Positions 38,881-62,901 of a DNA stretch of 64,000 nt are shown here, one piece after another. Made by a program: the position numbers and the translations under genes. Source of the DNA: Alphaproteobacteria bacterium. GTDB lineage: Bacteria > Pseudomonadota > Alphaproteobacteria > Bin95. Numbering within the stretch: position 1 is the stretch's first letter; the number at the start of each line of letters is the position of its first letter. Where the stretch lies: NCBI GenBank assembly GCA_965205265.1, contig CBDBGH010000003.1:4160001-4224000 (forward strand). The letters run 5' to 3'. The notes under the pieces were generated by a model, which did not search any database, was not told the origin of the DNA, and saw only the letters and a list, made by a program, of their open reading frames with translations.

Positions 38881-39132
38881 ATGAGAAGTGGCGATGAAAT
38901 GCTTCAGCAGATTGTCGAGAAGTCGGCCCTGGATGCGGATTTCCGGCAACAGCTTCTCGCGGATCCGAAGACTGCCATCAGCCAGGAATTGGGCATCACG
39001 ATTCCCGATTCGATGACCATCAAGGTGCATGAGAGCGATATGCAGACGGTGCATCTCGCGCTGCCGCCGGACCCGAACATTACCGAGGAGCAGCTCGAAG
39101 CCATCTCGGCCGGCCTCTGCTGCTGCTGGTAA
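38881..39132 (+). CDS. srpE: NHLP/proteusin RiPP precursor, core LCCCW (SrpE-like)
   Basis: Leader DADFRQQLLADPK...KVHE...HLALPP, cleavage motif ITEEQLEAISAG, then LCCCW*. Confidence 0.92.
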   Translation: MRSGDEMLQQIVEKSALDADFRQQLLADPKTAISQELGITIPDSMTIKVHESDMQTVHLALPPDPNITEEQLEAISAGLCCCW

Positions 39133-39139
39133 GCCCGAA

Positions 39140-39158
39140 AGCCGGCCACCGGCCGGCT
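39140..39158. terminator. GC hairpin after the precursor gene
   Basis: AGCCGGCC-ACC-GGCCGGCT between convergent genes; no U-tract on the plus strand. Confidence 0.35.
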
Positions 39159-39788
39159 GAAGAGAAAGCTTGAACCTGTCCCTCTGGCCGTCCAGCCGGA
39201 CGGGGCTAGGTTCTTTGCGCCTGTCCGATGCTGTTATCGCGGCGAAGCTGCCCCGGAAAGCACCATGAACACATAGGCTTTGGCCTGTGTGAGCCGGTTT
39301 CCGGATATGACCAGCTTTATGTGGTGAATGCCGCGCAACAGCACATAACGACCCGATTTCGCAAAAAGCGTCGTCGGCCTTGAAACCCACCCGGCAAGCG
39401 CGTCAAGTTTCCCGGGAACGACAATCTCCTCATGGCTCAAGGCTTTCAGGAACGGGTCCCAATCGGTCAGGCCGTCGAGCCAGTAGCGGGAATCTTTCGT
39501 GTATCTCTGCCTGACGATGAGTGTCAGGCCCAGAGTCGGACCGAGACCGTCTTCGCGCACATCGATATTCACGCCGGTCCTGACAATATTCGCGCGTTCC
39601 CTGAAGCGGGAAATCACAGCGCCGACGGCGGAGACCTCGCCCGGCCAGCCCGTGACTTCAAGATAGGAACACAGCTCCTGCTGCGACCTGAAGCCCATGA
39701 CCGCCAGGCGGATCGAACGGGAGCGGGACGGGAATACGCCGAACGAGTCCATGCGCGTGTCTTCCGGCTGCGCCCGGTAGGCCCGTTC

Positions 39789-59015: not shown

Positions 59016-59854
59016 CCGACAAAGACGACAACAACACCGCGCTCGACCCCAACAAGATCGACGCCATGAAGCTCTCCTTGATGCTTGCCGAGCTCCGCCT
59101 GCCGACGATCAGACAACTCTGGCAGAGCTTCGCCAAGCGGGCCGACAAGGAAGGATGGACCGCGGCTCGCTTCCTCGCGGCCCTGGCTGAACACGAACTC
59201 GCCGAACGCGACCGGCGGCGCATCGAGCGCCACCTCAGGGAGGCCAAGCTGCTTCCGGGCAAGACGCTTGCCTCCTTCGACTTCAACGTCGTGCCGATGA
59301 TCTCGAAGGCCCAGGTCAGCGCGCTGGCCGCCGGCGACGCCTGGCTCAGCCAGGGCGCCAACTGCCTGATCTTCGGACCGCCAGGGGCCGGCAAGAGCCA
59401 TCTCGCCTCCGCCATTGGCCTGGCCCTGGTTGAGAGCGGATACCGTGTGCTGTTCACCAGGACCACCGATCTCGTGCAGCGCATGCAGGTTGCAAGGCGC
59501 GAGCTTGCACTGGAAAGCCTGTTGGCGCGGCTCGACCGCTTCAACCTCCTGATCCTCGACGACCTCGCCTATGTGCGGAAGGACCAGGCCGAGACCGGCG
59601 TGCTCTTCGAACTCATCTCGGCGCGCTACGAGCGGCGATCCCTGCTCATCACCGCAAACCAGCCCTTCGGCGAGTGGGGAAAGGTGTTCCCGGACGAAAC
59701 AACCGCGGTGGCTGCCGTCGACCGCCTCGTCCACCACGCCACCATCCTCGAGATGAACGTCGAGAGCTACCGCCGCCGCGCCGCTCTCGACAGAGGCAAG
59801 CGAAAGGCCGGCCGGCCGCCAAGCTACGCAACCGAGAAAAACACCAAGGACTGA
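59012..59854 (+). CDS. istB: IS21 helper ATPase IstB
   Basis: [35 protein letters not shown]. Confidence 0.93.
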
Positions 59855-61626
59855 GCCGCCGCCTGCTCAGGTAGAGCGGCCACGACAATCAGGGCCCGCG
59901 GGGATCGTCTCCGCGCGCCGTCTCTTCTCCGACCCGACGGCCTGCCGCGACAATCAAAACCATTCCCGAAAACACTGTTTGTCGCGCCGCGACAATCAAA
60001 ACCGGAAACCGCTTGCAATCCACCCCCCGCGCGGCAATCATCAACTCGCCGCTGCCGCCGGGAATCTCATCCTGATTGACGCGCAGCTCTCACCCAGATT
60101 GTCGCGCCATAATGAAGCGCTTCGCCCCGTGATTGGAGAGCAGTTCCCTGGGATTGTCGCTGCGGGCCAGCCTGTCGAGCAGGCGTTCCACCTGATGGCG
60201 GCGCTCGTGCGCGTCCTTGCGTGCGCGCTGGGGGCAGAAGACGACGATCAGGCGACGGCCCTTGTACTCCCACTCGCCGACCCGGCGGTCCTGTGAGCCC
60301 TCCAGCGGGGCATAGGTCCCGGGGTCGAGAACCTGCCCCAGCAGCGCGAGCGGCAGCTTGCGCAGCCGCGCGCCGACGACATACTCGCCGCCGATGGCGT
60401 CCATGGCGTCGAGGTTGTCGGCGCTCAGCATGCCCCGGTCGGCCACGCATACCGTGCGCTCCACCTGGTGGCGGCGCTGCATGTCCTGCAGGACCGGGAC
60501 CATGCTGTGTCCCTCGTAGGTGGCGCCGGGGAAGACCTCGTAGCTGATCGGCAGCCCTTCGCGCGTCACCATCAGCGCCAGCAGAACCTGCGAGTCCTTG
60601 TGTTTGCCGTCCTTGCTGAAGCCGTGCTGGCGAAGCTCGTCCTCGGCGGCCGTCTCGAAGTAGAGCGTGGTGCAATCGAAGAAGAGGATCGCGACCGGCT
60701 CCGGCAGCAGCGACCGGCTCGCCTCGCCGACGCGCGTGCGCAGTCGCTCGATCACCGTCGCGTCGAGCTGATCCATCATCCGGTAGACCTTCTCGAGCGG
60801 AAGACTCACGCCGAAGTCCTCCTCGAGCCGGCGCACGCTGCCCCGCTTGCTGTCGGGGTTGGCTACCCGCGCCATCACCACATGGAACAGCGCGTCATGG
60901 GAGGCCCGGTAGCGCGAGCGCGGCAGCAGCGCGTCGAGGCCCAGCAGCCGGTAGATCTCGCCATAGACCTCGTGGATGCCTGTGATCAGGCGCTGCTCCT
61001 CTTCAAGCTGCTTGAGGTCGACCGGGAGTTCCTCCTTGCCGTCCCCCCGGCGGCCGACACGGATCGCCTGCTCAGCGATCTTCTCGGGCGCAAACAATGC
61101 CGGCTGACGCTCGTCCTCCAGCTTCGCCTTGACGTACTCGCCGAGCTGCCTCAGGCGCTCGAGCTCGTCCTCGTCCATGGCCACGCCGACATGGCGGACG
61201 ATGCGCTGTCGGACCTTGCCGCCGTCGCGCACGGCCTCGACGATCTGGACCGAGCGTCGCGGGCTGTTGGGGGAGGTCTTGATGCGCACGAACATGGGGG
61301 GAGTGTAGCGCGTGGCGGAGGCATTGACAGTCTCAAAGATTTACTAGGCACTACAACGCAGCTTGACCGCACCGCAACTGCCAACTCATTGGCTTTACTG
61401 AAAACTCCAGACGCGAGATCGGTCAGAAGTCAGCCCAACCGTCGAAGTCAGGGACCTGACCTATGGCGGCCGCCGCGACAGTTTCCTCGGCGTGGAATTC
61501 TCGTTCAGCTTCTGATGCCGCCCCCAAGGATGCCGCAATCCGGGCGCAACCGCGCGATGACACCCGGATTGTGGTATCCTGCCGGTGGATGCGATTACCG
61601 GCCGTTAGCTGTGGAAGCCATGCCGG

Positions 61627-62901
61627 ATGATACAGCCGGGCAGCAGATCCTTGCGGAAGATCGCGGTCGTCGGGCGGGGAACCGCAGGATCCCTGGCGGC
61701 CGCCAGCGTCACGCGCCTGCACCCCGACAGCGACCACGAACTGCACCACATATACGACTCGCGCATTCCGGTCATCGGCGTGGGAGAAGGCAGCTGGCCG
61801 AGCCTGGTCCGGCAATTGCAGGAGCTGACGGACCTGCCGCACGAAACCGTCCAGCAGCGCCTGAAAGGAACGCGCAAATACGGCGTCGCATTCGAGGGAT
61901 GGGGCCGGCGAAACCGGGATTTCACCCACTATTTCACGCCGCAGCAGGTGTCCTACGCCTACCACCTGTCCGCCGACCTGATGGGGGAACTGCTGCAGGA
62001 AAGCACGCGCGCGCGCCACATCGACGCGAAAGTGCTCGACATCGAGAGGGTGGAAGACGGCGCGCAGGTGGTGTTCGAGGACCGGGCCCCGGAGCGCTAC
62101 GACCTCGTCTTCGACGCTCGCGGGTTTCCGCGCGAACTCCATCCCGACCGGCATATCGACATTTCCTTCATCCCCACCGATACGGCCGTCATACGCCGTT
62201 GTCCGCCGGTCATGGAAGACGAGCGGAACGGGCCGGTTCTGCAACACACATACACCCGCGCGGTCGCGCGTCCGCATGGCTGGGTCTTCGTCATCCCGCT
62301 GACCGCGCACACCTCCTACGGATACATCTTCAACCGCGATCTATCGGGCCTTGCCGAAGTCGAGGCGGATTTCGACGCCTTTCTCGAAACCGACGGCGTG
62401 TCGGAATTCGAGCAACGCGCCGTCATTCCGTTTCCCAATTTCGTCCACCGCCGGATCTATGACGGCGCCGTGGCCCGCATCGGCAATGCGGCCGCCTTCA
62501 TGGAGCCGCTCGAAGCAACGGCGATCGTGTCCGCCCAGCTGCAGATCGGGATGGTTCTCCACACGCGCCTGAACCGCTCCGCCGAGCATCTCGACCGCGA
62601 CGCCCCGGCGGTCAACCGCTTCCTCGTCGACAACATGCTCCGCTACGGCCTGTTCGTGGGCTGGCACTATTCCTGCGGCTCCCGATACGACACCGCCTTC
62701 TGGCGCCACGCCCGCGACCGCGCCTGGCCGCAACACCGCAGGGCGGCGGACCCCGAACTGGTCGATTGCGCCGCGCTCAGCAAATTCGACGAGATGATCG
62801 AATTGTTGAACCGCCCGGTCATCGACAAGGCGGACTGGAGCCGGATGTGCGCGGTCCCCCTCACCAGCTACGCCCAGATGTCCCAGGGCCTCGGCTGTTA
62901 G
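61627..62901 (+). CDS. srpI: Flavin-dependent tryptophan-halogenase-family enzyme (SrpI-like peptidyl-Trp brominase)
   Basis: GRGTAG, IGVGEG, catalytic-Lys context GTRKYGV.FEGW, GWVFVIP, FMEPLEAT; clustered with the LCCCW precursor. Confidence 0.85.
   Translation: MIQPGSRSLRKIAVVGRGTAGSLAAASVTRLHPDSDHELHHIYDSRIPVIGVGEGSWPSLVRQLQELTDLPHETVQQRLKGTRKYGVAFEGWGRRNRDFTHYFTPQQVSYAYHLSADLMGELLQESTRARHIDAKVLDIERVEDGAQVVFEDRAPERYDLVFDARGFPRELHPDRHIDISFIPTDTAVIRRCPPVMEDERNGPVLQHTYTRAVARPHGWVFVIPLTAHTSYGYIFNRDLSGLAEVEADFDAFLETDGVSEFEQRAVIPFPNFVHRRIYDGAVARIGNAAAFMEPLEATAIVSAQLQIGMVLHTRLNRSAEHLDRDAPAVNRFLVDNMLRYGLFVGWHYSCGSRYDTAFWRHARDRAWPQHRRAADPELVDCAALSKFDEMIELLNRPVIDKADWSRMCAVPLTSYAQMSQGLGC

Follow-up and report, generated by a model that had tools for sequence, protein, structure and literature searches.

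Clusters of the srp type encode sponge-derived proteusins, which belong to the RiPPs, peptides that are synthesised by ribosomes and modified after translation. One such cluster lies in a stretch of 64,000 nucleotides from an alphaproteobacterial genome (contig CBDBGH010000003.1, positions 4,160,001 to 4,224,000; the window in what follows). Three of its genes, which encode a predicted prenyltransferase (PT), a predicted class II terpene cyclase and an AlkB fusion protein, are the main subject of this analysis. According to the main texts of the srp papers, srp clusters are ubiquitous in sponges and strongly transcribed, their ecological role is unknown, and SrpE, SrpC and SrpI have been characterised. 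Specifically, the YcaO enzyme converts the three cysteines of the LCCCW core to thiazolines (PMC10286304, PMC10858898, PMC9426513), and the SrpI-type brominase acts in a leader-dependent manner on the C-terminal tryptophan, which is brominated at indole C6 (PMC10286304). In the leader, the (L/I)TEEQL stretch is named as the recognition sequence of the YcaO enzyme, with ITEEQL as the consensus reported for srp precursors in metagenome-assembled genomes (MAGs) of sponges (bioRxiv 10.1101/2023.06.09.544420). An L(X)4L motif of the leader binds SrpI and C39 domains (srp papers).

Isoprenoid transfer to ribosomal peptides has been described in other pathways. NctPC is a fused prenyltransferase-cyclase (PC) maturase whose P domain is ABBA-like and whose C domain resembles MstE; it geranylgeranylates tryptophan and then cyclises the attached group, and ChrPC is also described (review PMC13290415). 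In the mpp cluster of Moorena producens, MppC geranylates the indole of tryptophan, and this reaction is leader-dependent (PMC11791876, PMC12715784).

Judged from its sequence, the window holds one canonical srp cluster, an ordinary member of the published family, on a chromosome riddled with insertion sequences (ISs), and its gene set does not depart from the common srp pattern recovered here. On balance, we lean towards a chemistry, inferred from the analysis of these genes, in which a split system of the PC type prenylates srp peptides and cyclises the isoprenoid so attached, a step that this strain would have lost.

The PT, the cyclase and the AlkB fusion are part of the common srp gene set and are not peculiar to this window. 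Two independent seeds were used, the 443-aa cyclase against species-representative genomes and the precursor against metagenome contigs, and the neighbouring genes were located by tblastn with the window proteins. The cyclase recovered 79 loci, in MAGs labelled Alpha- and Gammaproteobacteria, Nitrospirota, Nitrospinota, Gemmatimonadota, Acidobacteriota, Latescibacterota, Binatia, Opitutales, Chloroflexota and others, 40 of which are well flanked, with at least 7 kb on both sides. Among these 40 loci, the precursor is found in 37, the PT in 39 (C-terminal piece) or 40 (N-terminal piece), the YcaO gene in 38, ABC2 and the halogenase in 34 each, and the AlkB fusion in 32. Precursor, PT and YcaO occur together in 35/40, and these 35 include 29 with the AlkB fusion and 31 with the halogenase. 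The PT gene is immediately beside the precursor in nearly all loci and forms a single open frame in 61 of 63. The precursors recovered with the cyclase seed end in AGLCCCW (55/57) or AGLSCCW (2/57). Two srp clusters at a distance of 2 Mb were found on a single MAG contig (L004 and L005).

The precursor seed yielded 29 metagenome loci, of which 28 are real, with LCCCW cores in 25 and LCCWW cores in three. Of the 20 loci that extend at least 2.3 kb downstream, 16 contain the PT; it is missing from L103, whose precursor does have other srp genes behind it, and from three loci with orphan precursors (L110-L112), which have no srp gene within 10 kb. Where at least 8.5 kb is available downstream (n = 14), the cyclase and the PT are each found in 11 loci, the YcaO gene and the AlkB fusion in 10 each, and the halogenase in six. 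An earlier note on this window, made from its letters, regarded the accessory enzymes as extra to the srp pathway; this view is not sustained, as the three genes recur in synteny in srp loci of many phyla. The same note had named a lack of conservation in srp clusters as grounds for rejecting its proposal, and the genes proved to be conserved under both seeds.

No report of prenylation or terpene cyclisation in srp was found in the main texts of the literature surveyed. The PT, cyclase and AlkB genes may be the published srpA, srpB and srpD, to judge from the order of the letters. Furthermore, the abstract of Hubrich et al. (Chem, 2024) reportedly predicts PC units for proteusins, Nif11 peptides and lasso peptides, and the srp family may therefore already be on its lists. 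The PT/cyclase reading of srp may already be in print in part.

The gene at 39234-42414 is assigned as an ABBA-fold prenyltransferase gene on the basis of a confident predicted fold, and its catalytic role is predicted likewise. An AlphaFold2 (AF2) model of the family alignment, with an intact orthologue (L001) as its first row, has a pLDDT of 89.5 and a pTM of 0.89, and displays a barrel of five alpha-alpha-beta-beta repeats. Foldseek against the Protein Data Bank (PDB) returns 92 matches with E <= 1e-3, and all listed matches are ABBA aromatic prenyltransferases (NphB, EpzP, AmbP1/3, CloQ, IptA and DMATS enzymes), with a best E of 1.4e-6 and TM values of 0.4-0.5. VIA-align places MpnD first with Z 16.9 (rmsd 4.6, 312 aligned), ahead of 6-DMATS with 16.1 and CymD with 15.8; among 997 chains, 133 score Z >= 8, and the 50 that are listed are without exception prenyltransferases, the best ones being of the indole/tryptophan type. 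Invariant Arg, Lys and Tyr residues are numerous in the alignment and would fit a diphosphate pocket. The neighbours of the PT in a protein language model carry Trp_DMAT (PF11991) or PTase_Orf2, with scores of 0.91 and 0.89, which is taken as a lead only. The family comprises 859 representatives at E <= 1e-3 and 119 at <= 1e-30, nearly all of 340-390 aa. Longer, fused forms of the PT were not encountered in a word-based search, which is weak evidence, and none of fusion length is among the best 150 of the 859 profile matches.

The second enzyme is encoded at 47248..48579 on the minus strand, as a single copy in the genome (443 aa; TIGR03793 1.1e-07 and a fold match). It is predicted to consist of a paralogue of the precursor leader and a class II terpene cyclase domain with the acid motif in place; its activity is likewise a prediction. 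Residues 18-91 align without gaps with residues 8-81 of the precursor, up to the Gly before the core, with 31% identity and an E value of 3e-15. The family profile matches alpha chains of nitrile hydratase as well as 8tb1, a solved NHLP leader (1.7e-6). The (L/I)TEEQL stretch of the precursor reads FTAAER in the cyclase, which lacks the (L/I)xxxxL motif, and an invariant linker containing DPAPP follows the aligned Gly. The leader-like domain was also considered as an export signal cleaved by the C39 peptidase; in view of FTAAER and of the conserved linker this idea was dropped. In our reading, the leader paralogue serves for docking rather than as an export signal that is cleaved off.

The AF2 model of the 443-aa protein has a pLDDT of 79 overall and mostly above 90 in the C-terminal domain. 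Foldseek retrieves 44 matches with E <= 1e-3, namely the cyclase domain of the drimenol synthase AsDMS (6.7e-12, rmsd 3.9, 322 columns), MstE (3e-9, TM by target 0.69), the monodomain "squalene-hopene cyclases" 8pak and 8paj, and drimenyl diphosphate synthases among them. The profile of the C-terminal domain alone also matches AsDMS (8.9e-6) and 8paj (5.6e-4). The stretch D219-L-D221-S-T is invariant; HLPQDLDST of the window protein aligns with NFPDDLDTT of AsDMS, and 8paj has ADADST at this place. The entry for the AsDMS mutant D333N reads DDLNTT there, so that D221 falls on the catalytic acid. The acid motif is invariant over 36 cyclase sequences from many phyla. At least 1057 relatives were found at E <= 1e-3 among 8000 scored candidates, and the best 120 are all at least 69% identical and 422-466 aa long. 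A predicted complex of the cyclase domain with the PT returned no answer (score 0.00). As far as fold, motif and linkage of the genes go, the functions predicted for the PT and the cyclase are well supported.

The following pathway is proposed. The YcaO enzyme would convert the three core cysteines to thiazolines, and the SrpI-type halogenase would brominate the C-terminal tryptophan. The ABBA-fold PT would place an isoprenoid on the leader-bound peptide, and the class II cyclase, which would act by protonation-initiated catalysis, would then cyclise that isoprenoid. Together, the two enzymes would represent a split version of the fused PC maturases. The AlkB-type enzyme would probably oxidise the lipid part, and the C39 exporter pair would cleave after AG and export the product. 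More tentatively, and with somewhat less than even confidence, we suggest that the true srp end products are peptide-terpenoid hybrids, in which the peptide is prenylated, the isoprenoid is cyclised onto or beside the C-terminal tryptophan by a cyclase recruited through its leader paralogue, and the product is oxidised by the AlkB enzyme. If this is true, sponge extracts are to be searched for lipophilic brominated peptide-terpenoids, whose mass and behaviour would be unlike those of the azoline pentapeptides made in E. coli. It would also explain why the natural srp product has remained unmatched to the heterologous one. Furthermore, an enzyme would have taken over a precursor gene as its docking domain, possibly a new way of recruiting a tailoring enzyme.

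Several observations weigh against the proposed prenylation and cyclisation. No polyprenyl diphosphate synthase is present among the cluster open reading frames (ORFs) scanned, the AlkB fusion is missing from 8/40 well-flanked loci, and the leader-like N-terminal domain of the cyclase is modelled with low confidence (pLDDT 31-73). The assignment of the PT rests on a predicted fold: its pieces have no match in Pfam or NCBIfam even at E 10, the same holds for 12 family members, and the PT profile has no sequence match in the PDB. Two further observations of this kind, the PT paralogues beside tryptophan-free cores and the contigs of public runs that bypass the IS, bear on specific alternatives and are taken up with them below.

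The first alternative concerns the acceptor and the order of the reactions, and the evidence for it comes from related genomes. PT homologues occur in 10/16 other species of the genus, all as open frames. One of these genomes (G005) has a canonical cluster whose core is LCCCW after AG, and a second cluster (L131) with the core WCCCGT and a PT paralogue. In three others the core has no tryptophan: LCCCGI in G008 (L125), with an AlkB-GlnE fusion, a YcaO gene and a PT; LCCCL in G010 (L128), with a PT; and RCCC in G001 (L124), with an AlkB-GlnE fusion, a YcaO gene and two PTs. Neither a cyclase nor a SrpI-like halogenase was found in G008, G010 and G001. The PT paralogues beside these tryptophan-free cores are 38-51% identical to the srp PT. 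In G003, locus L138 (C3:2530000-2546000, 4679-10936) contains three NHLP precursors ending in PIW, PLW and EPW, a YcaO gene on the other strand, a standalone 335-aa cyclase and a PT. The cyclase is directly downstream of the third precursor and is followed by the PT, which is 30% identical to the srp PT. Against the profile of the srp cyclase domain, the G003 cyclase has an hhalign probability of 100% (9e-54, 37% identity), with DVDDT at the acid motif. In these genomes, which are few in number and related, the cyclase accompanies cores with a C-terminal tryptophan, and the precursor directly upstream of the standalone cyclase offers a simple explanation of how the srp leader-cyclase fusion arose. 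A further locus of G008 (L137, C1:2245763-2248978) has three tandem NHLP precursors ending in PWGW, IHTW and TPTW beside a distant frame similar to tryptophan halogenases (26-32% identical to the halogenase of the window).

As PTs stand beside tryptophan-free cores without a cyclase, tryptophan need not be the acceptor and cyclisation need not follow prenylation. The PT and the cyclase could thus act in srp in another way than by prenylation of tryptophan followed by cyclisation, for instance with a short prenyl group on the N-terminus, the carboxylate or a thiazoline-derived atom, and with the cyclase acting on a free isoprenoid or with tryptophan as the terminating nucleophile only. This would agree with the cyclase having been found only beside cores ending in W (LCCCW, and PIW, PLW and EPW in L138), and with the nearest solved cyclase, AsDMS, which acts on free farnesyl diphosphate according to the titles of its PDB entries. 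However, the sample of tryptophan-free cores is small, comes from a single genus and consists of cases that are not independent, and the specificity of paralogues with this degree of identity may have changed. The best structural matches of the PT are moreover indole/tryptophan prenyltransferases, though a shared fold does not show function. We consider this alternative improbable, although it has a bearing on the earlier note, whose isoprenoid-adding, -cyclising and -oxidising set holds with regard to the enzyme families and is weakened in its tacit choice of tryptophan as acceptor.

According to a second alternative, the PT-like and cyclase-like proteins are not enzymes of the peptide pathway at all and serve in binding, as a scaffold, in self-protection, or in a separate meroterpenoid pathway travelling with srp. 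The PT belongs to no curated PT family by sequence, fold similarity alone does not show catalysis, and the neighbouring GlnE-like domain, from which a catalytic Asp is missing, shows that the cluster does contain degenerate domains. However, the acid motif of the cyclase is invariant across phyla, the cyclase has a paralogue of the leader of the precursor itself as its N-terminal part, and the PT gene adjoins the precursor in nearly all loci. In addition, a natural fusion links the PT and cyclase families. In a genome of the same class (G027), a 686-aa frame (L123:6021-8081) joins a PT-family domain (hhalign 96.4%, 1.4e-9, 220 columns) to an MstE-like cyclase (phmmer 1e-45). A PqqD-like gene (4769-5083) lies next to it, together with a methyltransferase gene and two P450 genes, and the frame resembles a maturase of the PC type in RiPP surroundings. 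Given these ties to the peptide pathway, a role outside it appears very unlikely, and the split PC-type system remains our preferred reading.

In the window itself, the PT gene is interrupted. Its C-terminal piece (39234..39932, minus strand) and its N-terminal piece (41848..42414, minus strand) are separated by a 1915-bp IS (39933..41847) with a DDE_Tnp_1 transposase gene at 40035-41690(-). The IS stands between perfect 144-bp direct repeats (39789-39932 and 41848-41991), of which each gene piece includes one copy; long target duplications of this kind are typical of IS1634-type elements. The 48 residues encoded by the repeat are common to both pieces, each of which can be aligned over its whole length with intact orthologues of ~372 aa. 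Removal of the IS and of one repeat copy results in a frame of 373 codons without an internal stop, in which 329/373 residues (88%) are identical to the intact L001 orthologue (L001:15736-16857), with no gaps. The earlier note had already called for repair of this gene, and rightly so.

No second copy of the PT gene exists in the genome. Since the gene is split and is the only copy, the strain as assembled probably cannot perform the prenylation step, which would be lost, and it can at most make a brominated tris-thiazoline peptide. The 1915-bp IS has at least 41 full-length copies in the genome, all 100% identical (40 of 261 candidates were scored for this count). The insertion is recent, because no difference separates the two copies of the duplication (100% identity) or any of the 41 copies of the IS. 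Within the window, four copies are located at 8440-10354, 34430-36344, 39933-41847 and 56737-61452, the last of which is split by an IS21-type element. In this genome, a typical srp cluster is undergoing erosion by an IS burst.

The recent date of the insertion would also be compatible with an IS that is not fixed, so that an IS-free, functional allele coexists in the natural population and the organism still makes the complete product. When the contigs of public runs were laid on 38881-42500, those of runs X1 and X2 joined 39788 to 41848. They skip 2059 bases, 144 of which fit either side, show no other differences and have the depth of the flanks, and an intact PT allele may therefore exist, contrary to the loss proposed here. 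In a relative in run X5, the PT gene is spanned without an IS. However, the 144-bp repeat is probably longer than the assembler word, so that a word-graph contig could walk from flank through repeat to flank even if all molecules carried the IS; the X1 and X2 contigs were presumably built with 31-letter words. Runs X1 and X2 may also be source samples of the genome and hence not independent, and the assembled genome carries the IS and no second PT copy. Persistence of a functional allele is thus rather unlikely in our view, and loss of the step in this strain as assembled is retained as the preferred account. RNA-library contigs of relatives (run X8, 85-95% alike) map to the precursor and to parts of the PT gene; they are not taken as transcription of this locus.

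The third accessory gene (44775..47171, minus strand) encodes an AlkB-GlnE-like fusion of 798 aa (FA_desaturase/GlnE). Residues 11-383 form an AlkB-type di-iron membrane monooxygenase domain that matches the solved AlkB 8f6t (E 1.8e-47), with the His-rich stretches aligned. The C-terminal 400 residues include a GlnE-like domain of nucleotidyltransferase fold at residues ~460-710, which matches the GlnE structure 3k7d (3.1e-10) and whose language-model neighbours are all GlnE or GlnD. The SDLDL motif of GlnE aligns here with the consensus vaiDl, in which the first catalytic Asp is lost, and the second is replaced by N, H, S or E in some members. Because of this loss, we expect the GlnE-like domain to be non-catalytic or to work differently. 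No rubredoxin appeared among the window ORFs scanned, although no search aimed at rubredoxin was made. In many loci labelled Gemmatimonadota/Longimicrobiales (L027, L036, L041, L042, L044, L049 and similar ones), the AlkB-GlnE gene is 50-55% identical and is located on the other strand and at another position. In some of these, ~120 residues are missing from the end of the protein, and the positions of the PT and the precursor differ as well. A second, stand-alone gene of the FA_desaturase family lies 30 kb from the cluster (window 7174-8115(-), 313 aa, PF00487 8.8e-28).

The core genes of the cluster comply with the srp pattern. The SrpE-like NHLP precursor (38881..39132, plus strand, TIGR03793 8.4e-20), a single copy in the genome, has a leader with ITEEQL and ends in AISAGLCCCW, so that a five-residue core LCCCW follows AG at a site of the double-Gly type. 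A fused leader-binding/YcaO cyclodehydratase similar to SrpC is encoded beside the precursor, as is characteristic of srp (42424..44871, minus strand; PF02624 1.4e-94, TIGR03604 3.4e-80, TIGR03882 5.6e-39); its activity is predicted from the family match. As this ORF overlaps the AlkB-fusion gene by 97 nt, the true YcaO start is probably downstream of 44871. Two NHLP bacteriocin export ABC transporters follow the cyclase gene, a permease/ATPase subunit (48590..51532, minus strand, TIGR03797 2e-202) and a transporter with an N-terminal C39 peptidase (51532..53742, minus strand; PF03412 2.3e-34, TIGR03796 5.7e-252). Next to them, a short HlyD-like protein of 224 aa (53744..54418, minus strand, TIGR03794 5.6e-4) is encoded, of which only the N-terminal ~50 residues are matched by the HlyD model of the NHLP system. 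It was considered as a truncated gene, an idea that was dropped, as short homologues (37-70% identity) are found in 44/79 loci.

The SrpI-like flavin-dependent tryptophan halogenase (61627..62901, plus strand, PF04820 4e-47) has K84, Y102 and Y110 at the residue numbers of SrpI (PMC10286304), and K84 aligns with the Lys of solved tryptophan halogenases. A blastn comparison of the IS with the window shows that nested IS debris (56737-61452) separates the halogenase from the rest of the cluster. It consists of the fourth copy of the 1915-bp IS (56737-57318 and 60112-61452), split by the IS21-type element at 57319-60111 (istA 57513-59015, istB 58838-59854; IstB PF01695 1e-63). The IS coordinates of the two parts overlap by 8 bp (575-582), and a second IS21-type pair is located at 17326-19757 of the window. 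An ORF at 55739-57331(-) was rejected as a gene because it is largely IS sequence. In G005, the canonical srp cluster (C1:42531-49811) and the halogenase (C3:369267-370538, 94% identical) are on different contigs, so the halogenase need not adjoin the srp cluster.

A six-frame search of the genome for azoline oxidases and flavin reductases gave eight matches to PF00881 and two to PF01613, none of them within the window (C3:4160001-4224000); the nearest Flavin_Reduct match is ~19.7 kb before it. The absence of both from the window, as read by the earlier note, is thereby upheld, and family models bear out its LCCCW NHLP precursor, YcaO enzyme, halogenase and C39 exporter. Its putative prenyltransferase acquired a predicted ABBA fold, its cyclase-like gene a class II terpene cyclase domain that has the catalytic-acid motif at the expected position, and its AlkB-like gene is a true AlkB homologue. 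The genes of that description stand, while the leader paralogue on the cyclase, the GlnE-like domain on AlkB, the single-copy state of the PT and the separation of the halogenase by ISs had been missed.

The genome comprises 5.70 Mb in three contigs, with a completeness of 98.98% and a contamination of 7.28%. Four public sequencing runs contain about all words of the locus, and seven runs labelled sponge metagenome (five studies) contain 20-26%. Housekeeping genes occupy the left 34 kb of the window, and a MutL gene follows the halogenase. An RND transporter of the MMPL/HAE3 type (36355..38694, plus strand; PF03176 2.2e-35, TIGR00921 2.1e-44) precedes the precursor and has homologues in 17/40 well-flanked cyclase-seeded loci, which makes it a frequent srp neighbour. 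Another frequent neighbour, in 14/40 of these loci, is the LolA-like lipoprotein-sorting protein (54561..55433, plus strand, PF17131 5.1e-59). The chromosome has 68% GC and falls to 57.5-64% in the cluster region. The minimum of the window is at 46001-48000 (0.575 versus ~0.68 elsewhere), where the cyclase gene lies and the AlkB gene begins, which fits a horizontally moving cluster.

Compared with the srp clusters described so far in the main texts of the srp papers, the locus shares the NHLP precursor with an LCCCW core and (L/I)TEEQL, the fused YcaO enzyme, the halogenase with K84, Y102 and Y110, and the spread over MAGs of many phyla. It differs from the srp pattern in that an IS splits the PT gene and nested IS elements set the halogenase apart. 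With the mpp cluster (PMC11791876, PMC12715784), it shares an SrpI-like brominase accompanied by a prenyltransferase (MppC), a terpene synthase (MppD) and an oxygenase (MppG), whereas the mpp product, as the main texts present it, is a lanthipeptide with a Nif11 leader, made with LanM and without a YcaO enzyme. The likeness to NctPC and ChrPC, as far as these are covered in the review, consists in an ABBA-like PT and an MstE-type class II cyclase of a single domain that would serve a ribosomal peptide with a long structured leader. In NctPC and ChrPC both form one polypeptide, whereas here they are encoded by separate genes (39234-42414 and 47248-48579) with the YcaO gene and the AlkB fusion between them. 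Unlike the cyclase of the PC maturases, the srp cyclase has a leader paralogue, not a PT, as its fusion partner, and by sequence it is nearer to the cyclase domain of AsDMS than to MstE; the srp pathway also has azoline formation, bromination and the AlkB fusion. MstE and AsDMS (PDB 6sbb-6sbg, 9mhs, 9m7d) have the same single alpha/alpha-barrel fold, with the DxD(T/S)T acid motif at the aligned place. They differ in a sequence identity of only 16-18% to the srp cyclase and in their small-molecule substrates, and the N-terminal NHLP-like domain belongs to the srp protein.

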